NCBI RefSeq assembly: GCF_006345805.1
Contig: NC_042997.1
Location: 200,384,001-200,448,000 of the forward strand
Direction of reading: 5' to 3'
DNA: 64,000 nucleotides
DNA from: Octopus sinensis
Lineage: Eukaryota
Shown: positions 1,002-60,740 of the stretch, in pieces
Layout: each line of letters opens with the position of its first letter
Position numbering within the stretch: the stretch's first letter is position 1
Made by a program: the position numbers and the translations under genes
The notes under the pieces: generated by a model
Told to the model about the DNA's origin: nothing
Databases searched by the model: none
Seen by the model: the letters and a program-made list of their open reading frames with translations, nothing else

Positions 1002-1347
1002 TAATTTAGATGACAATTAATTCACTGCATCCTGTATATATATATATTAGCCACCGATTGCTGGCCTTTCGTGTCCAGCAGCCGTTGCGGCAAGACACAC
1101 TTTTTTGTCTCTCTGTAGCCCTAAGGCTTTCTTCTAACACCAGCTCGTAAATTTACTCGTCCTGTCGAAAAAACGCTTGTCTGTGACGTCCTGTTTTTGT
1201 TGTTATTATTATTATCATTATTGTTTTTACGTATTTTTGTATTCTTATTCGTGTAACATCGTCCGTTTTTCCGTCCTTGTTTTGTATACATTCGAGGCTT
1301 TCTTCCAAGGAATCTAATGCGCTTGGCTTGGATTTTCCTTTGGGGCT

Positions 1348-1425
1348 GGCCAGATCGGAGCAATGTCAAGATTAATCAGCCGAAATTGCGAAGATGATCC
1401 GGTTCTTGACTGAAGATTGAAGGCT
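1348..1425 (+). ncRNA. Reverse-order (pseudoknotted) hammerhead-like ribozyme, copy 1, probably inactive (G at position 17)
   Basis: GCAAT(1360-64)/ATTGC(1385-89) stem III; TCAAGA(1366-71)/TCTTGA(1404-09) stem I; GAA 1382-84; CTGAAGA 1410-16; AGCC/GGCT possible stem II after a 5-nt insert. Confidence 0.6.
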
Positions 1426-1607
1426 TCGAATGTCCCGTCCGTGTTTTTTGTATCGTTTTCTAAATGTTTCACGTTCTTGTCCCAGTTTGTATTTTTTTAC
1501 ATTTACGTATATATATATATATACATAGTTCATGTTTAGTTAAATGAAGGAAAAAGGTGGAGAGTTAAAATGATAATTATTAATTATTAAAAAATTGGTA
1601 ATCTTTA

Positions 1608-1705
1608 CTTCTTACAGCCGTTTCCATTAGTGCTCAATAGGTAAATTACAAATTTATGTTTTAAATTTACATTTATATGTTATGAACGTAATTTCATCAG
1701 AGAAA
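1608..1705 (-). ncRNA. Type I hammerhead ribozyme with long stem II (degenerate)
   Basis: Minus strand: TTTCT CTGATGA AATTA...TAATG GAAA C GGCT GTA AGAAG; core intact, A.G mismatch at the base of stem II. Confidence 0.6.
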
Positions 1706-1931
1706 AATATATACATTAAGATATTACATGCCAGCCTTTGCATTCATGCAAGCAGATTAAATAAAGAGATAGTATTTTTTATTGTTTTGTGTGAGAGGAG
1801 GGATAACAGATCAGTTAGAATATAATGGCTAATAAGGTAAAGTAAAGAATAAGATAAAATAAAATAAAAAGTAAATAAAGTAAAAATGGAAATAAAATAA
1901 AATGAAGAAAATTTTAAATAAATAATATAAA

Positions 1932-3060
1932 TCTATTATATAAAATCCGTTCTGTCTGTCTGTGTGTCTTCTAGGATCTTGGGCATCTTCCATCCGATTG
2001 CGCTCAAATTTGATATGTAGATACCGACGGTATCAGGGCGTGTATAAGTCTTGAAAAAATTACAAAAATCGATTCCAGGTGAGAATGCAATCGATAAAGC
2101 CATACGCAAGAAACCTGCACGTGCAGTTTGCGCAAAAAAAGCTGGCTGGCTTGAAATAATGCCACAAATTGCAGTATATTTAAGAGACCAAAAAAGTAAG
2201 ATGCAAAAGAGATATTTTCTTCAAACTTGGCATGAAGGAAGGAAAGACTATTTGGTTTCTCAAGAAGTTTTTTTTTCTGCCTTAACTTCGTTTAACAAAA
2301 CCAAAAAATTGTATTGAAATAAAGGCATGCTTAATTATTTTTTAATGAAAAATAAACACTGATTGCTTTTTATTTAAGGAAGAAAATACTATTTTCTTGC
2401 TAATAAATGATTTTTGTTGCCTTACAGCTTTAAACCAAAAAAGTGTGTTTTTTAGTGAAAGAAAACCATTATTGTATTCAATCAAGATTGTTTGAGCTTT
2501 ATTTCAAGGCGAATGTAGTGAAAATACTTCAATTTTTGAAACAAAAGACTATTTGCTTGCTTCTTAATCGTGCAATATTTTCATTTTCTGAACGTACACA
2601 ATTAGCCTACAATTGACCAGTTACGTTCTCATAAATTCATCCTGCTTTTCCATCTAGATTTACCTCCAGCTAACCCTTTTGCATGCATTGTTTTTTCCTG
2701 CTTTTCTTCCGTCAACCTGTACATAACTGCACCTTCCATTTTTTGTTGTTTTTGTACTGCTTAAAGGCACGTTTCTTTCCTGCCAAGCTTACTGTTTAAA
2801 CCATGTTTGTGTTCACCCAGTCAGCAGCCTTATCATTACTGGTACTTTAAACTCTTCGGTTGCATATTTGTGTGAATAAAATCGTTTTTCTTTGGAATAG
2901 AAAAAAAGTCTATCTTTATTTCTTCTTTTGCTGGTGTCTCAAATTTAGGTTAAATCAGTGTTTCTCAAAGGGGAGGCCTATGGGACGGTCGGACAAGTTG
3001 TTTTGAGAAAATTTGGTTTAAATGTTTGACAACTCAGCACCATCCATTGGATGGGGGGGG
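1932..3060 (+). mobile_element. Helitron-like non-autonomous element, 5' part (3' end not found; end coordinate is a guess)
   Basis: Starts A|TCTATTATATAAAA followed by (CTGT)n and ATCCGATTGCGCTCAAATTT, like the 5' ends at 15275, 41936 and 46685. Confidence 0.45.
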
Positions 3061-3294
3061 TTTACTTGTATAAAATAAGTAAATAACAGAACTAAAATAC
3101 CCAATTATGATATATATATATATATATATATATAAACCAACCCCTCAATGTTAGTTTCCTTGTCCTGTTTTTATTCTTTATGTGTACTGTATTTTTATTT
3201 GTATTGCTTTTACGTCCTATTCTTGTCACTTTTTTTTCTTTTTTTACTCCTCTGCAAAAGAATTTTATTTAATTCATTTTGCAGGAAGGACTAC

Positions 3295-3367
3295 TTCGGC
3301 CAGATCGTGTTCTGCCCTTACCTTCGAAACACGCATTGAGTCGAACCAGAGGCAGTTGATGAAGGGG
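3295..3367 (+). ncRNA. Reverse-order (pseudoknotted) hammerhead-like ribozyme, copy 2 (GUU site, C3U core)
   Basis: CGTGT(3306-10)/ACACG(3329-33) stem III; CTGCC(3312-16)/GGCAG(3351-55) stem I; GAA 3326-28; TTGATGA 3356-62; CTTC/GGGG stem II; outer helix TTCGGC/GTCGAA. Confidence 0.65.
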
Positions 3368-3488
3368 AATATTCCTTGTATTGTTTGTCTTGTACTCTGT
3401 TTTTCGTTGTTAAAAAAAGTCCGTTTCCTTGTTTGTTTTTATGTTTTCGTTTCTCGTTGTGTTCTACGTTTATTTGTGGTGTCCTGTA

Positions 3489-3539
<51 letters not shown>

Positions 3540-3678
3540 TATATATATATTATATATATATATATATAGATGTAGGTATGTACATATATGTATGTATGTA
3601 TGCATAAGTTTTATTGATAAATTGTTATTATATGACTGAACGCTCGCGTCGCTTCTTATCCTCCAAGTACGTGTTTAT

Positions 3679-3719
<41 letters not shown>

Positions 3720-4588
3720 TATATCATTGTGTAAAGACATATACATTCATAATCATTCACATATATATAAAAATCAATTTATTTCCTCTATAAGAGGACA
3801 CCTGGGTTTGTCTCTTCCATACCTTAGCTTTTCAACACCTGGCATTAACTACTTCCCCCTCTCTTAAACACTATCCCCTCCACTTATTTAAGGGTGTCTT
3901 TTTCCTGTTGTTCTCTTCTCTTGCTAGTTACTTGCCAACTTCAGTAGTGCAAGTGACATGAAATAACAGATAATGTCTCCAGTAAACGCTGTGAAATGTT
4001 TGGCATTTGGAAGGGATGGATGCCCTTCCTAAAGCCAATTACTAGAAGCCATTCCAAAGCTGACACTGAAGCTCTATGTGGCTTTGCAGCTTGTTGGATC
4101 TTGTCAAACATTTGATGATAATATATTGACATAGAGAATATACTTAACTATGAAAGATCAGAGCAAGTTTTACAAAAACAAATTTCATTGTGATTTATTG
4201 TGTAGCAAGTTGGGTTGAATGAAGCTGCCAAAGGGAATTTGAAATGTGATTTAATAGAATATTAAGAAGATAAAGCTTTAAGTAATCCATGAATGAAAAA
4301 CATTTCTTCAGAACCATCTCACCTATGCCACATTTGAGCATTATTTCATATACACCAGAGATGTGAATGTTAAAAAAAATTCTTTGAAACTTGATTTAAA
4401 TTTTTTTGTCTTGTTATCCCTTTTTTTTGTTGTTGTTGTATTTAAAAGCAGTGTTGGAAACATTTAATTCAGACAAAGTTATCTGAGTGAAAATAATGAC
4501 TTTTTGTATTGCTGTATATTTTATTAGCTTTAAAGACAATACGTAAGCCAAATAAAGATTCTATCACTACTTTTGTTCTTGTATGCAG

Positions 4589-4696
4589 GCTTCGACTGAA
4601 TGCAAGATCAAAGGTTCTGTTGCTGTGTGCTCGCAAGAATTCTCCTTCAAGTCGTTTGAAAAGATTGAAAACATCTTCAAAGGGTCTTGTCTTTGA
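4589..4696 (+). CDS. Candidate terminal exon (phase-0 reading ASTECKIKGSVAVCSQEFSFKSFEKIENIFKGSCL*), unverified
   Basis: Non-repetitive sequence after a good acceptor CTACTTTTGTTCTTGTATGCAG; no recognisable homology and a second frame is also open. Confidence 0.2.
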   Translation, partial: ASTECKIKGSVAVCSQEFSFKSFEKIENIFKGSCL

Positions 4697-4884
4697 TTGT
4701 CAAGCTCTTTCAGCATCTTATAATGTAGATGTTTTCAGACTAAAAAGATACATGTGTATATGTGTATATCTATGTATACATAGATATACACATACATACA
4801 TACACATACATACATACATACGTACATATATATATATATATGTATGTATATATGTATATATATATTATATATATATATATGTAT

Positions 4885-4931
<47 letters not shown>

Positions 4932-4937
4932 TATATG

Positions 4938-4989
<52 letters not shown>

Positions 4990-5153
4990 ATGTATATATA
5001 TTATATATATATACTTACACTGTGTGTGTGTGTGGCATGTGTCTGTGTGAGAGAGAGAGAGTATGTATACACACCCATTAATTCATATATTTACATGTAT
5101 GTATGTATGTATGTATGTATGTATGTATGAATGTATGTATGTATGTATGTATG

Positions 5154-5196
<43 letters not shown>

Positions 5197-5233
5197 TAAT
5201 ATATATATATTATATATATATATATATAATATA

Positions 5234-7973
5234 TGTTTGCATGTATATATGTATGTATTTACATATGTATCTGTCTATATGCATAATCTCTCTCTCTCTC
5301 CCTCTCTCTCTATATATATATAGATAAGTGTGTGTATGTGTGTGTGTGCATGTGCGTGTGTCTGTGTGTATATGATGTCACTTTACATAGATAATAATAT
5401 GAAATGACATTCACAGTTTCTGATATCACCATTTCTAATATTCGTAGGAATATTCATAAGACAGGATAAGTTCTTTACCACAAAGTGATGATTAAGTTAG
5501 GGAGATGAGTTGGGGAGGAGCTAAAGAGGCATACAGCGATATGTGTTGTGAAGATGCTACAGAACTACACTCAGTGTTTTACACATCCAGTATAATGTGT
5601 TGTCCCTGAATCTGAGCCAAAGCTGTTTGCCTGCTTTAGTTCCAGGAGCCACATAAGTTTTAATATGTTGGATTAAACTTAGTTAAATATATGTGTATAT
5701 ATGCTTTGTGTGGAGGCGCAATGGCCCAGTGGTTAGGGCAGCGGACTCGCGGTCGTAGGATCGCGGTTTCGATTCCCAGACCATGCGTTGTGAGTGTTTA
5801 TTGAGCGAAAACACCTAAAAAAGCTCCACAAGGCTCCGGCAGGGGATGGTGGTGATCCCTGCTGTACTCTTTCACCACAATTTTCTCTCACTCTTACTTC
5901 CTGTTTCTGCTGTACCTGTATTTCAAAGGGCCGGCCTTGTCACTCTCTGTGTCACGCTGAATATCCCCGAGAACTGCGTTAAGAGTACATGTGTATGTGG
6001 AGTGCTCAGCCACTTACACGTTAATTTCACGAGCAGGCTGTTCCGTTGATCGAATCAACCGGAACCCTCGTCGTCGTAACCGACGGAGTGCTTCCAAATA
6101 TATGCTTTGTACTATAGGCACAAGGCCTGAAATTTTGTGGGGAGGGGAATAGTCGATTACATCAACCCCAGTGCCTCATCATCATCATCATCGTTTAACG
6201 TTCGCTTTCCATGCTAGCTTGCATTGAACGATTTTGACTGGGGGTTGGCAAACCAGATGGCTGCACCAGGCTCCAATCTTGATCTGGCAGGGTTTCTACA
6301 GCTGGATGCCCTTCCTAACGCCAACCACTCCGAGAGTGTGGTGGGCGCTTTTTACCTGCCACCGGCACTGGTACTTAATTCATCGACCCCGAAAGGACGA
6401 AAGGCAAAGTTGACCTCGGTGGAATTTGAACTTAGAAAATAAAAACAGATGAGCTGCCGTTAAGCATTTTGCCTGGTGTGCTAACAATTCTGCCAGCTCA
6501 CTACCTTTATATATATGTGTGTATATATAAATGTATGTGTATATATAAATATGCCTTTATATATATATGTGTATATATAAATGTGTATATATAATATATA
6601 TATATATATATGTTTGCATGTATATATGTATGTATTTACATATGTATCTGTCTATATGCATAATCTCTCTCTCTCTCTCCCTCTCTCTCTATATATATAT
6701 AGATAAGTGTGTGTATGTGTGTGTGTGCATGTGCGTGTGTCTGTGTGTATATGATGTCACTTTACATAGATAATAATATGAAATGACATTCACAGTTTCT
6801 GATATCCCCATTTCTAATATTCGTAGGAATATTCATAAGACAGGATAAGTTCTTTACCACAAAGTGATGATTAAGTTAGGGAGATGAGTTGGGGAGGAGC
6901 TAAAGAGGCATACAGCGATATGTGTTGTGAAGATGCTACAGAACTACACTCAGTGTTTTACACATCCAGTATAATGTGTTGTCCCTGAATCTGAGCCAAA
7001 GCTGTTTGCCTGCTTTAGTTCCAGGAGCCACATAAGTTTTAATATGTTGGATTAAACTTAGTTAAATATATGTGTATATATGCTTTGTGTGGAGGCGCAA
7101 TGGCCCAGTGGTTAGGGCAGCGGACTCGCGGTCGTAGGATCGCGGTTTCGATTCCCAGACCATGCGTTGTGAGTGTTTATTGAGCGAAAACACCTAAAAA
7201 AGCTCCACAAGGCTCCGGCAGGGGATGGTGGTGATCCCTGCTGTACTCTTTCACCACAATTTTCTCTCACTCTTACTTCCTGTTTCTGCTGTACCTGTAT
7301 TTCAAAGGGCCGGCCTTGTCACTCTCTGTGTCACGCTGAATATCCCCGAGAACTGCGTTAAGAGTACATGTGTATGTGGAGTGCTCAGCCACTTACACGT
7401 TAATTTCACGAGCAGGCTGTTCCGTTGATCGAATCAACCGGAACCCTCGTCGTCGTAACCGACGGAGTGCTTCCAAATATATGCTTTGTACTATAGGCAC
7501 AAGGCCTGAAATTTTGTGGGGAGGGGAATAGTCGATTACATCAACCCCAGTGCCTCATCATCATCATCATCGTTTAACGTTCGCTTTCCATGCTAGCTTG
7601 CATTGAACGATTTTGACTGGGGGTTGGCAAACCAGATGGCTGCACCAGGCTCCAATCTTGATCTGGCAGGGTTTCTACAGCTGGATGCCCTTCCTAACGC
7701 CAACCACTCCGAGAGTGTGGTGGGCGCTTTTTAACCTGCCACCGGCACTGGTACTTAATTCATCGACCCCGAAAGGACGAAAGGCAAAGTTGACCTCGGT
7801 GGAATTTGAACTTAGAAAATAAAAACAGATGAGCTGCCGTTAAGCATTTTGCCTGGTGTGCTAACAATTCTGCCAGCTCACTACCTTTATATATATGTGT
7901 GTATATATAAATGTATGTGTATATATAAATATGCCTTTATATATATATGTGTATATATAAATGTGTATATATA
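5234..7973. repeat. Near-identical tandem duplication, period about 1.38 kb
   Basis: 5234-6594 matches 6611-7973; identical ORFs at 5794/7173 and 5846/7225; junction lies in (TA)n. Confidence 0.95.
5710..6097 (+). mobile_element. Full-length tRNA-derived SINE family D with 13-bp target-site duplication (duplicated at about 7089-7476)
   Basis: A box TGGCCCAGTGG, B-box-like GGTTTCGATTCCC; flanked by ATATATGCTTTGT at 5697-5709 and 6098-6110. Confidence 0.85.
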
Positions 7974-8954: not shown

Positions 8955-9157
8955 TTCTTTAATTCTTTTATTCTTTTTCTTGTTTCAGTCATGTGACCGC
9001 GGCCATGCTGGAGCACTACCTTTAGTCGAGCAAATCGACCCCAGGACTTATTCTTTGTAAGCCTAGTACTTATTCTATTGGTCTTTTCTGCTGAATCGCT
9101 AAGTTACAGAGATGTAAACACACCAACATCAATTGTCAAGCGATGTTGGGGAGACAA

Positions 9158-9188
<31 letters not shown>

Positions 9189-9710
9189 TTCTGTCTACCG
9201 AATCCACTAACAAAGCTTTGGTTGTCCTGATGCAATACTAGAAGAGACTTGATGAAGGTGCCACACAATGGGACTGAACCTGGAACCATGTGGTTGGGAA
9301 GCAAGCTTCTTACCACACAGCCACTCCTATGTACATTCCTATCTTTTATCTTTTGCTTGTTTCAGTTATTTGACTGCAGCCATGCTGGAGCATTGCATTG
9401 AAGAATTGTAGTGAAATGACTCAACCCCAGTATTTTTTAAGCTTGGTACTTATTCTGTCAGTCTGTTTTGCTGAACTGTTAAGTTACGTAGACATCACTA
9501 TTAGTCAAGTGGTTTAGGGAGAGGACAAACACAGAGACACACACACTCACACACACACATACAAACCATGGGCTTCTTTCAGTTTCCATCCACCAAATCC
9601 ACTCACAAGGCTTTGGATGTCCTGAGGTAATACTAGGTGACACTTGATCAAGGTGCCATGCAGTAGGATTGAACTCAGAACCTTGTTGTTATGAAGCAAA
9701 CTTTTTATCA
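8955..9710 (-). mobile_element. Two adjacent SINE family A copies (about 8955-9331 and 9340-9710)
   Basis: Each has the TTGTTTCAGTCATTTGACTGCGGCCATGCTGG-type tail, internal (CA)n and tRNA-like head. Confidence 0.85.
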
Positions 9711-50471: not shown

Positions 50472-50509
<38 letters not shown>

Positions 50510-50573
50510 CAAAAGGATGTGTTATAATACTATTCCACATATACAAAAACAGACATACCAACAATCTGACATA

Positions 50574-50640
50574 CTTCCATCATCAGCTGCCCCTCGGATA
50601 TCATTATGGTTTCGACACCTGGGCAGTACAATTCAATCCG
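50574..50640 (-). ncRNA. Reverse-order (pseudoknotted) hammerhead-like ribozyme, copy 3 (GUA site)
   Basis: Minus: CGGAT TGA ATTGT A CTGCCC AGGTGTC GAA ACCAT AATGAT ATCCG AG GGGCAG CTGATGA TGG; 6-bp stem I, stem III with one mismatch, outer helix CGGAT/ATCCG. Confidence 0.65.
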
Positions 50641-50774
50641 GTGGTGTCAACAGCACTAAAATATGCATTGTTTGGGAAGAAACATACCAAAGAAACCACA
50701 ACTTTCAAACACATTTACACTATGTACAACATTATTGGTAAATAAATTCAATAAGTAAATCTATAACCGACTCC

Positions 50775-50819
<45 letters not shown>

Positions 50820-52195: not shown

Positions 52196-52268
52196 GTCAG
52201 TTTAGCTTAATGGTAAAGCACTGGACGTTGTAATCACAGGGATATGAGTTCAAGTCTCGTGACTGGCG
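52196..52268 (+). pseudogene. tRNA-like pseudogene (Thr-TGT-like) between inverted repeats of about 30 bp
   Basis: Acceptor GTCAGTT/GACTGGC, D arm GCTT/AAGC, T arm ATGAG-TTCAAGT-CTCGT; anticodon arm is irregular. Confidence 0.55.
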
Positions 52269-56405: not shown

Positions 56406-59085
56406 TATATATATATATATATATATATATAAACATTAAAAAAAATTTTTGTAGATATAATAATGAAAAGTGTGAAAATCGGACCATGTAACTTTATTCA
56501 ACTGATATATTTTTCTATACACACACAAATTCGGGGGAGTATATCTATGTATGTATGTATGTATGTATGTATGTATGTATGTATGTATGTATGTATGTAT
56601 GTATGTATGCATGTATGTATGTTAGAGGGAAAAGGACAACAAAAACCAAGGCAGGATGAGTATCTCAAGTCATTTAGAATATTTAATTAGAGTAAGGTGA
56701 AATTGAGGCAAAATTCTTATATCCAAATGATATTTCATTCACCAGACTCTACCTGTTTTTCAAGTAAGAGAATATTTCATTCTAAACGTATCTGGATGCA
56801 CAGAACTACACAGAACTAACAGAAACTTTGTTGAAAGGAAATGCCAATAAATGTCACCAAATACTACCCAACCAAAAATTATGATGTTTCCATTTATAAC
56901 TGAGCCGTATTGCCATAGCTCAGTGTTCTTTTGTAGGCGTTTCCCCAAACACAGAGGCGCATGTACACCACAAACATACACACGCACATGTCTGATAATC
57001 TTTTATTTTCCGTCTACCAAATCCTTTCATAAAGCGTTGATTGGCAGAGATAGACCTGGGAATAGTTCAAATCAACTAAAGAATCGTAAAGCTGACTTGG
57101 GATATATTATCATCCTCATCATCATCATCGTTGTGCTTAACGTCCGCTTTCCATGCTGGCATCAGTTGGACGGTTTGACTGAGGACTGGCAAGCCAGAAA
57201 GGTGTACCAGACTCCAATCTGATCTGGCAAGGTTTCTACAGCCGGATGCCCTTCCTAACGCCAACCACTCCGAGAGTGTTGTGGATGCTTTTATGTACTA
57301 CCAGCATGGGAGCCAATCAGGTGGTGCTGGCATTGGCCATGCTTGAATTGTACTTTTTACGTTCACTCAGCTGTAGAAATGAGTTGCAACATCACTGGTG
57401 TCAAGCTGTATCGGCCTTTGCCTTTCCTTTGGATAACATCAGTGGTGTGGAGATGGGAGGCCGGTATGCATGGGCGACTGCTGGTTTTCCATAAACAACA
57501 CTGCCCGGACTTGTAACTGGGAGAGTAACTTTCTAAGTGCAATCCCACAGTCAGTCATGACCGAAGGTGGTCTCAATATATTTATATTCTCTGTGAGTGT
57601 ACGTCGTTGTGTCTGTTTTTGTCCTCCCCTCCACTGTTTGACAATCGATGTTGGTCTGTTTACATCCTCATAAGTTAGCGGTTCAGCAAAAGAGAACAAC
57701 AGAATAACCACCAGGTTGAAAATGAATTGAAGTGCTGGGAACTAAAACTCTTCAAGGCAGTACTCCAGCATGGTCGCAGTCTAATGACTGAAAGAAGTAA
57801 AATATACCACTAACTAAGATTGCAGCATTCTCCCTCAAAAGTGGTGCCATGTCTGGCATCTGGTTAAATCCCCAGCTATTGTTGGGTTTTATTTACAGCT
57901 GAATGGTTTGAAGCAAGAGAAAATGAAGTGTCTTGTCCAAGAATATAACATACTACTTTGACCGGGAATGAAACCACGATTTTATGAGCAGTAGTGCAAC
58001 ACCCTAACTACTGGACCACATATTTTCACATCTAGTTATATGAATGTTTTCTAATTTAAACACGGGGCTGGCAATTTTTAGGGAATAGGGTTTTTGTTAA
58101 TACGATCAACTCCAGTTCTTACAATGAGTCGTATCTTTATTTTATTGGCTCTGAAAGGAAGATAGACAAAGCTAAACTGGGTGGGATCTGAACTCACAAT
58201 ACAACGAAAATTTTAATTTTTAGTTGTACTGAGAATGTAATGTAATAATAGTTTAAAATTTCAAAACAAAGTATGAAAACTAATTAATTTGTGAAAATTT
58301 GAAAAATTTACATTTGAAAATTTAGAAACTTGTAAAATTTTATAAATTTTATTCATATAGACACCAATTTCGTCAGATTCCAAATTTTCCCAACACACAC
58401 ACACCACACAAATGTACACATGTGTATATACACATAGGTGCAAATATGTGTGTGTATCTGTGCGTACATATTTGTGTGAGCGTATATGTATGTATACAAG
58501 TGTGTGTGTGTGGATGCAAGAAATGTATTTCTAAAACATTTTCTCTAAATGTCAAGTGTTATATGTTTGTTTAAATTCTGTTTTACTCATCATATTTGTA
58601 GAAATATTTCTCCTGATTTGCTAATAATAAATTTTGAATTTTCTTCTTCAGAAAAGATGGAACTTTGTTTGAAGAAAGAGTAAATTAAAACGAAATAAGG
58701 AAGGAATATTAAACGAAAAGAAACAAGCTGGAATTCTAAGGTAGCAGCTATAGCTGTGTGGTTTACATATACACATTTCAACTACACACTTGTGTGTTTG
58801 GTTGATTCTTGCGCATGGTTTGGTAAGATTTCCCGTTTTTCCATTTTCCTTTGCTCCAGCTTACTGCGCCTGTCTGACAGTTGCAAGACCCATTTTGTTT
58901 TTATTTGTTATTGTTGGAATTGTACAATTATTTCCCTTCTGTTGTTTAGCCGAAAGGCGTTTGTCCATTGTATATGCATAATTATTTTCTGTTGCACTTG
59001 CATTATTATTTCATTATTATTTCATAACGTTATGTTCGTTAAAAAGTCGAAAGACCTTTCCTGTTATTTACCTATTTGTATTCGT

Positions 59086-59259
<174 letters not shown>

Positions 59260-59837
59260 GTTTAACATCCGCTTTCCATGGGTTGGACAATTTTGACCGA
59301 GGGCTGGCGAACCAGATGGCTGCACCAGGCTCCAATCTTGATCTGGCAGAGATTCTACAGCTGGATGGTCTTCCTATCGCCAACCACTCTGAGAGTGTAG
59401 TGGGTGCTGTTTACGTGCCACCGGCACTGGGGCCAGTCAGGCGGTACTGGCAACGACCTTGCTCGAATCTTTTTACACATGCCATCAGCACAGGTGCCAG
59501 TAAGGCGACGTTGGTAACGATCACGCTCGAATGGTGCCCTTTTTTCGTGCCACGGATATGGAAGCCAGTTGGCTGCTCTGGCAACGATCACGCTTGAATG
59601 ATGCTCTTAGCACCCTACTAGCATGGGCGCAAGTGCTAGTAAGGCGACGCTGGTAGTAGGGCGACGCTAAAAATTTCTTTTCCCTCCACTTTATTGTATA
59701 GCTGAAAGGTGTTCTGCCGTACATGTATAATTCTAGCTTTCTTGTTTTTCTTTCTATTCCTGTTTTCGTTCTTGTATACATTCATCTGCCTCTTTCCCAG
59801 AGGCTTAATGCTTTTAGGTTAAGTCCCTGCACCCGCC

Positions 59838-59905
59838 GAACTTGAGTAGTACCAGAGATAAAGGAGCGAAACTACCAGCAGTTTCTGGACTCTGACTGAT
59901 GAGCT
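59838..59905 (+). ncRNA. Reverse-order (pseudoknotted) hammerhead-like ribozyme, copy 4 (GUA site, fully canonical core)
   Basis: GTAGT(59846-50)/ACTAC(59871-75) stem III; A17 at 59851; CCAGAG/CTCTGA stem I; AGC(59865-67)-GAA; CTGATGA(59896-902)-GCT stem II with G10.1-C11.1. Confidence 0.75.
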
Positions 59906-60512
59906 AATCAGCTGCAAATGATCCATGTATCTTGTTTTTGTACTGTTTGCCATTTGTTGTGCTGTCGTCCATTTTCCCGCATGTCGTGTTTTGTTGGTTT
60001 CCGTTTGTGCTTACCTTACGGTAGGTGTGCATCTAAATTTTATACAGCTCTTACTCTATCTTTTATTCCCCCTCTCATTTTTCTTCCTTTTTCTCGCTCC
60101 CCCTCTCTCACATTTCTTAGCCTTTCTTTCTTTAACTCCCACTATTTCCCACTTGTTTATCTCCTCTGCATCTTTCTCTTTGTCTCTGATTTTTGTCTAA
60201 TCCTTCAATCACGCTACCCCCTACCCATCTCTCCTTCTTTCTTGGCCTGACTACCAACCGCCAACACCTCTCATGTCCATCTCCTAAGTTCCTGCCTTTA
60301 GGCTTTCACTTTATACACGCCAGCCCATTTTGATGTGTTCTCAGTAGAAAGATGCATGTTGTTATTTCTTGTTGTTTGTATTCGTAATTGTGTACCATGT
60401 TCTCCGTTTCTTTTTTGTTTGTTTGTTTTGTTTGTCTTTGTAGCCATACACATTCGCTAGCTTTCTTACAAAAGGGCTCTAATGGTCTTAACTTAGACTG
60501 TTTTGGGAGCAA

Positions 60513-60585
60513 CCAGATCGAACCATCTCAAGTGTATCTGCCGAAATGGTCGTGACTCCTGGGACTTGACTGAGGAAAGAAAGCC
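60513..60585 (+). ncRNA. Reverse-order (pseudoknotted) hammerhead-like ribozyme, copy 5 (AUC site)
   Basis: ACCAT(60522-26)/ATGGT(60546-50) stem III; C17 at 60527; TCAAGT/ACTTGA stem I; GAA 60543-45; CTGAGGA 60570-76; stem II weak. Confidence 0.65.
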
Positions 60586-60740
60586 TGTCCTTCTAATTGT
60601 TGATCTTCTTGTCCGCCTTTGTATCGTCTATCTGTCCGAATATTTTAATGCCCTCTATTGCGTATTTTTCCATGCTTTCTGATGGAATCCTTTTCTGTAG
60701 AGAAAGGGACTTCATTCTATATTGTTAGTATATATATATA

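Follow-up and report, generated by a model that had tools for sequence, protein, structure and literature searches.

The hammerhead ribozyme has been divided by Eckert et al. (2023; PMC10085705) into three blocks, S, G, and C; the type in which they are arranged as S-G-C cleaves in vitro, and block C (a stem I strand, CUGAnGA, and a stem II strand) is assumed not to be interruptible by more than 1-2 nucleotides (nt). Naiads, a group of Penelope-like elements, were reported without canonical hammerheads in the paper of Craig et al. (2021; PMC8557442), which lists unexplained HHR_core and HHR_half_core cases, and the lack of hammerheads in Naiads had earlier been taken as a hint that ribozymes are dispensable for, or parasitic on, Penelope-like elements. 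Here, we analyze a hammerhead-like motif in 64,000 nt of the Octopus sinensis genome (the window; NC_042997.1, positions 200,384,001 to 200,448,000 of the forward strand, assembly GCF_006345805.1), where an earlier note had flagged positions 59838-59905 as a hammerhead with a new strand order. The motif is a CSG-type hammerhead whose chain is broken anew between A9 and G10.1 and connected instead from stem III to a helix joining stems I and II (the I-II helix). We consider it quite probable, from the comparison of repeat families described below, that this opened, permuted hammerhead is positioned at the 3′ ends of Naiad-type elements, where it would cleave a tandem transcript and thereby define where the template for reverse transcription starts at its 5′ end. 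The strand order is known, and the split-core variant and its genomic setting are new. The earlier note had claimed novelty for the order and had itself named prior publication as what would remove it, and the claim falls because type SGC was already published and validated in vitro (PMC10085705). A literature search that left most subscription journals outside its reach, and that included PMC10162972, gave no description of permuted hammerheads in Naiads or of an opened block C; of the related sources, one deals with type I hammerheads only (bioRxiv 10.64898/2026.07.22.740005), one with short core insertions only (PMC3088659), and one mentions variants with extra helices (PMC13725137).

Rereading of the window confirmed the flagged letters, including the C.A mismatch at 1.1/2.1, and the S-G-C order (written C-B-A in the earlier note) at the other four loci, 1348, 3295, 50574, and 60513. 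The description of the motif as a pseudoknotted, non-circularly permuted hammerhead was likewise borne out, as were the covariation of stems I and III and the short covalent link between stems I and II. Each window copy was used to retrieve its own repeat family, with 30 loci per family, and the families differ in divergence: F1 (copy 1348) has 97-98% identity, F2 (copy 3295) 95-97%, F3 (copy 50574) 89-92%, F5 (copy 60513) 79-92%, and F4, to which the flagged copy belongs, 77-89%, with 2,567, 2,459, 1,610, 1,366, and 265 first-look candidates, respectively. The hammerhead core (C3-U4-G5-A6-N7-G8-A9, G12-A13-A14, A15.1-U16.1, and H17) is present in the flagged copy and in all five family majorities, in which stems I and III are perfect and position 17 is an H. 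The flaws of the window copies, the flagged C.A pair included, are departures from the majorities: copy 1348 carries a G at position 17, a letter found in none of its 29 F1 sister copies, 27 of which have C, and in the flagged copy 1.1 is C, where the F4 majority has U. Presented in the earlier note as the best of five, the flagged copy comes from the most diverged family, and it is probably weak or dead as a ribozyme because of the 1.1/2.1 mismatch and the decay of its I-II helix, which has five Watson-Crick pairs in the F4 majority.

The block order and the short linker are those of type SGC, whereas an intact block C is lacking (the flagged copy has a 3-base pair (bp) version), and the circular C-G-S order and nested three-way junction of types I, II, and III are absent. 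The decisive difference lies in stem II, which the earlier note had built from the bases that follow CUGANGA. To score stem II, 158 copies were picked on the core and on stems I and III, with stem II unused, and 156 were scored, two with (TA)n as 5′ flank having been left out. A stem II of 5 bp with a score of at least 4.5 is formed with the 5′ flank in 113 of the 156 copies, compared with one copy for the bases directly after A9 (allowing an insertion of 0-2 nt) and two for the 20-nt 3′ flank. The mean stem II score is 4.61 for a copy's own 5′ flank, 3.37 for the flank of another family, 3.61 for shuffled sequence, and 2.51 for the canonical position, and in 150 of 156 copies a G stands opposite 11.1 at the best 5′ site. 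This 10.x strand is located 20-28 nt upstream of the predicted cut and changes together with the strand that precedes CGAAA, giving the sets GGCTG/CAGCC, GGGCA/TGCCC, GAAGG/CCTTC, GACACC/GGTGTC, GCACCA/TGGTGC, and GAGCA/TGCTC. Swapping of stem II between families gave p=5e-5 (13 representatives). Pairs 2-5 of stem II each occur as at least three standard pair types, with 16-17 of 17 representatives paired, compared with one of 17 that is paired at 10.1 in the canonical register. The GCT/AGC stem II of the flagged copy is a quirk of that copy: a 3-bp run is found in one of 13 scored F4 copies, and a few more of the 30 F4 copies have by eye a 3-bp run with a G-U pair after A9. In the sister copies L023 and L024, the 5′ stem II helix is found in a changed version that is fully paired. 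Since the stem II strand is in the 5′ flank, the break in the core falls between A9 and G10.1. The CAG that precedes G10.1 was also considered as a 3′ splice site, a reading that was dropped, as other families carry CGG or TGG.

The complete strand order is the 10.x strand of stem II, the first I-II strand, stem III/NUH/stem I, 1-5 nt, 11.x/GAAA/stem III, the second I-II strand, and stem I/CUGANGA. The earlier observation that the long linker pairs with the 5′ flank holds, though that account was incomplete, in that stem II also uses a 5′-flank strand and the fold has four strands. The I-II helix, which joins the far sides of stems I and II, has its first strand in the 5′ flank and not in the 3′ flank; this strand closely follows the 10.x strand, as in published SGC and CSG ribozymes, and the long linker is its partner. 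Family swaps of this helix gave p=0.008 by pair count and p=5e-5 by duplex energy on 17 representatives. Covariation is found for each of the three stems (I, II, III), in the case of stem II with the 5′-flank strand only, and the G10.1-C11.1 pair is present. A15.1-U16.1 is kept in 16 of 17 representatives, and the core columns are invariant in 28 picked sequences, most of which were selected on that pattern. Alignment of 28 copies with MAFFT displaced the stems, so base pairs were tallied relative to core anchors.

The abundance of the motif was estimated with descriptors of graded stringency. A strict descriptor consisting of the core letters and stems I and III only, run for six block orders, matched the window twice in the S-G-C order and not at all in the other five, with no match in 10 local dinucleotide shuffles; three other window copies fail it because of G17 (1348), U3 (3295), and a stem III mismatch (50574). 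In a 400-kb evenly spaced genome sample, it gave no S-G-C match and four type I matches, the S-G-C descriptor being too strict for decayed copies, and a loose descriptor was noisy (11 S-G-C matches versus 4-17 for other orders). A BLAST search of the same sample found five family pieces, three with both core halves. Genome-wide, CGAAA-N22-27-CTGANGA has 33,328 matches versus 4,190 for the reversed control, about 8-fold more, and the excess of about 29,000 corresponds to one per 93 kb in the 2.72-Gb genome, consistent with the five pieces in the sample. The expectation that nested descriptors would miss the motif was correct, as Rfam at gathering threshold finds only a tRNA in the window and no hammerhead; that tRNA-like match (52196-52268, plus strand, 41.6 bits) is possibly the head of a tRNA-derived repeat. 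The genome is also rich in canonical type I (C-G-S) hammerheads, some with a long stem II, and examples were seen at L152 (minus, near 4483), L169 (plus, near 1836), L173 (minus), L179 (plus, near 9054), and L186 (plus, near 9276). Forty further pattern hits, the non-F1-looking ones from the first 100 rows of the genome-wide pattern listing, reveal several more families; about eight are chance-like, and some others are too decayed to score. Three F1 copies (G000:C1:205007894, 205037643, and 213363184) have a common internal deletion by which both the cleavage site and the 5′ strand of stem II are lost.

The carrier of the motif had been missed in the earlier note. The 3′ ends of the elements are fixed, at about 100-300 nt beyond the ribozyme, and 5′ truncation is variable, with (TA)n flanks or targets and tandem and inverted partial copies, as in Naiads. 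In F3, a reverse transcriptase (RT) lies directly upstream of the ribozyme, and one locus, L192, runs from the RT into the ribozyme; the F3 RT has a weak Pfam RVT_1 match that is below the curated cut-off, and the open reading frames there are decayed. An F3-like ribozyme region is found downstream of the RT at 5 of 16 fetched RT loci. At L193, a GIY-YIG motif is located upstream of an RT that is 80% identical to the L192 RT, and this stretch ends short of the ribozyme. The Naiad layout, with GIY-YIG N-terminal to the RT and the RT last before the 3′ untranslated region (UTR), is therefore seen in the F3 lineage only, and F3 resembles by eye the 3′ ends of the published Naiad_Obim and Naiad_Ovul in the supplement of PMC8557442. 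On this layout and resemblance, F3 is assigned as the 3′ end of a Naiad Penelope-like element. The F1, F2, F4, and F5 units, of about 0.7-1.25 kb, are short, non-coding, and partly young; no open reading frame was found there, and we infer that they are non-autonomous relatives of Naiads. Among the matches listed for 120 loci of the non-coding families, no element-linked RT was present within 1.5 kb upstream, and a protein search with the RT piece for full-length relatives gave none at E<=1e-8. A Penelope-like RT at L142, considered as a parent, belongs to a neighboring different element with its own type I-like motif.

Other Penelope-like elements were encountered in the course of this search. 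L191 carries at 2400-5500 (minus) a separate element with an RT and C-terminal GIY-YIG and a minimal type I-like hammerhead end with a palindromic stem III. L195 carries at 1397-3742 (minus) a member of a Penelope-like family that has open frames of up to 782 amino acids at many loci, again with an RT and C-terminal GIY-YIG; the 3′ UTR of this family has no clear hammerhead by eye, and the family is a possible mobilizer of the young non-coding families. The 5′ ends of F1, F2, and F5 units (L055, L059, L127, and L069) have a donor-like GTAAGT or GTATGT followed by a long pyrimidine tract, which suggests that an intron has been retained in the 5′ UTR, a feature known from Penelope-like elements.

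If the ribozyme cleaves in vivo, the 5′ ends of new insertions should record it, and a step in 5′ ends at the scissile bond would be an indirect sign of that cleavage. The 5′ ends of (TA)n-flanked truncated copies were counted by hand, with nucleotide 1.1 taken as +1. In one search for F2 (91 rows, 86 loci), 3 loci begin in -30..-1, 50 in +1..+14, and 33 in +15..+28, so that 83 of 86 begin downstream of the predicted cut. Separate F2 searches gave 4 loci in -89..-32 and 16 in +29..+60, the anchors differing between searches so that the contrast is strict within one search only. For F1, counted on the first 100 of 1,519 rows (92 loci, with three deletion variants set aside), 11 of 89 loci begin upstream versus 78 at +1 or later, and an overlapping set has 5 upstream versus 26 downstream. 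Some F2 ends are grouped at +20 to +23, close to where stem III has its 3′ edge. Contigs from sequencing runs aligned on one F1 unit gave no informative start, end, or joint. In the mechanism that we propose, the four helices (I, II, III, and I-II) would rebuild a normal active site, in which the 5′-flank G10.1, paired with C11.1, would stack on the A9.G12 pair, and the short covalent link together with the I-II helix would keep stems I and II side by side. In a tandem or pseudo-long terminal repeat (LTR) transcript, the upstream copy would cut after H17, the template would start at nucleotide 1.1, and new insertions would begin at nucleotide 1.1 or just inside; the non-coding families F1, F2, F4, and F5 would be mobilized by Naiads.

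Naiads of other animals offer a comparison beyond the octopus, for which the consensi of PMC8557442 were read by eye in individual passages rather than as a census of the 54. Six passages, three assignable to Nippostrongylus Naiads, read as a clean type CSG hammerhead with a I-II helix. Naiad-2_Movir (box jellyfish), Naiad_Plae (acanthocephalan), and Naiad_EuTe (clam shrimp) read as the split form, with a terminal helix of 4-5 bp and a hairpin at the opening, and the fit of Naiad_Esco (squid) to this form is poorer. Several passages were not fitted by eye, including those with CUGACGA, which are most likely ostracod elements, and neither Naiad_Ppla nor the visible end of Naiad_Omin showed the motif. 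The 3′ end of Naiad-1_Movir has by eye a twister-like motif, and some Naiads may use another ribozyme class. From these passages, we lean toward the view that Naiads across animal phyla carry active, unrecognized non-circularly permuted hammerheads, which would be intact CSG in nematodes and opened at A9/G10.1 in a cnidarian, an acanthocephalan, a crustacean, and cephalopods.

Several points weigh against an opened hammerhead that cleaves Naiad-type transcripts. The representatives are related, and the swap p-values overstate their independence; the 5′ partner is the best of 16 positions, with a shuffled flank reaching 3.6 compared with the observed 4.6; and nested-only folding, without pseudoknots, gives unremarkable energies in six of six copies (z -1.5 to +0.7). 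In most families one can see by eye a plausible terminal helix that would bridge the A9/G10.1 gap, but it has no covariation support above family swaps (p=0.21) and is not claimed for this genome. F4 is the least clean family, in that A9 is usually followed by G, while the 5′ partner contains a mismatch and has a possible rival register just upstream. According to Eckert et al., no alignment is known with more than 1-2 nt inserted beside CUGAnGA (PMC10085705). No open reading frame was found in F1, F2, F4, and F5, and in another Penelope-like element (PMC11167929), the ribozyme is protein-dependent, its cleavage is dispensable for insertion in vitro, and there are no RNA-seq ends at the ribozyme site. 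This last system also lends itself to an explanation that we regard as unlikely, in which the motif is a hammerhead-derived signal that does not cut and is kept for protein binding or packaging, with 5′ ends piling up where RT stalls. The break of the core at A9/G10.1 would fit such a signal, as would a Penelope-type ribozyme that needed protein to cut and was unneeded for insertion in vitro (PMC11167929) and the ends at +20 to +23 near the stem III edge; yet all catalytic letters, A15.1-U16.1 (16 of 17), and H17 are kept though the stems have turned over, stalling predicts ends at helix 3′ edges (+35 to +45), where few are found, and the sharp drop exactly at the scissile bond is left unexplained.

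The helix with the 5′ flank could alternatively be the OFF state of a switch in an ordinary type SGC ribozyme, whose active form would have a weak stem II shortly after A9. F2-like families can form four pairs there (two of them G-U) after a 1-nt insertion, F1 can form four Watson-Crick pairs after a 5-nt insertion, the flagged copy forms three pairs directly, and the published HRIMA-1 ribozymes carry a 1-nt insertion after A9 (PMC10085705). In 15 of 17 representatives, however, this 3′ alternative is weaker by 2-9 kcal/mol, and of the other two one has it weaker by 0.5 and one slightly stronger; it is absent in F3, F4, F5, L223, L242, and L245, and reaches a score of at least 4.5 in only the single copy of 156 noted above. 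The 5′ strand, for its part, keeps a G opposite C11.1 and adjoins the I-II helix strand like a true 10.x strand, and we hold the switch to be quite improbable. That the pattern arose by chance and was multiplied by repeat amplification, with no selected structure, is scarcely credible: copies within a family are not independent, and the strict descriptor is absent from the 400-kb sample, but at least six different sets of stem sequences keep the four helices and the invariant core, and the same layout is seen by eye in published Naiads of several phyla, by which this reading is largely refuted. The opened, cleaving hammerhead at Naiad-type 3′ ends remains the explanation that we favor, and the features of the window are listed in Table 1. 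The F5 element of the table starts where the F4 copy stops (window 59669-60677), and families often adjoin in one microsatellite.

Table 1. Permuted hammerheads and their carrier elements in the window (positions are those of the 64,000-nt stretch)
Feature	Coordinates	Strand	Remarks
F1 element, young	1048..1527	+	ribozyme 1344-1416
F2 element	3139..3597	+	ribozyme 3285-3362; U3 in window copy
F3, 3′ end of autonomous-type Naiad element	50486..50780	-	ribozyme 50648-50580
Further upstream piece of F4 element	58812-59087		set apart by insertion
Non-coding Penelope-like element 3′ end, family F4	59669..60008	+	5′-truncated; contains the flagged copy
Likely 5′ strand of stem II (10.1-10.6), 5′ flank	59829..59834	+	pairs 59862-59867, one A.A mismatch
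I-II helix 5′ strand	59836..59840	+	pairs 59883-59888; decayed here
Block S	59846..59857	+	stem III strand 59846-50 (U16.1 59850), A17 59851, stem I strand 59852-57; predicted cut 59851/59852
Block G	59862..59875	+	stem II 11.x strand, C11.1 59867, G12-A13-A14 (GAA) 59868-70, stem III partner 59871-75
I-II helix 3′ strand, stem I partner, and CUGAUGA (C3-A9)	59883..59902	+	stem I partner 59890-95, CUGAUGA 59896-59902
GCT after A9 (stem II of the earlier note)	59903..59905	+	3-bp alternative, atypical for F4
F5 element, near full length, non-coding	60005..60677	+	ribozyme about 60505-60576

With these copies, non-circularly permuted hammerheads, known from a few hundred contigs of metatranscriptomes, would become very common in the genome of an animal, and if the assignment is true, animal genomes would have in them, at tens of thousands of copies, their first case of a non-circular RNA permutation. 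CUGAnGA and the stem II strand need not be contiguous, so that the number of possible layouts exceeds six and a large set escapes the present descriptors. The motif is also a candidate answer to a gap, as Naiads were reported to proliferate without canonical hammerheads. The step in 5′ ends at the predicted cut may provide a genome-only readout of ribozyme activity, making the role of the ribozyme in Penelope-like transposition directly testable.

There is viroid precedent for one extra base after A9. Hammerheads with such a base (CUGAUGAUG among the Eckert descriptors) are similar to the octopus motif in that the backbone tolerates an insertion at this position, but the octopus motif is a chain opening and not a single base as in CUGAUGAUG. 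Canonical Penelope-like elements and non-LTR retrozymes carry type I hammerheads (PMC8557442 and bioRxiv 10.64898/2026.07.22.740005) that are similarly placed, near the 3′ end or in a pseudo-LTR, with presumed processing of tandem transcripts, whereas theirs are nested C-G-S ribozymes with an intact core. As in the published account of Naiads (PMC8557442), the octopus elements have an N-terminal GIY-YIG before the RT, (TA)n targets, and partial tandem and inverted copies; unlike that account, a full hammerhead structure is given here, and F1, F2, F4, and F5 are short and non-coding. With type SGC (HRIMA-1 and its variants), the motif shares the S-G-C order, the short link between stems I and II, the fourth helix, the full core, and similar spacing, but the published ribozymes have the 10.x strand right after CUGAnGA, whereas the octopus motif has it 5′ of block S, and the published examples come from metatranscriptomes and none from the genome of a known organism, compared with about 29,000 copies in an animal genome here. 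In the case of type CSG, represented by two metagenomic sequences in Eckert et al. (2023), the circular order is the same, with the 10.x strand followed by the I-II strand and by blocks S and G; the octopus chain differs in being opened at A9/G10.1, which places stem I-CUGANGA last.
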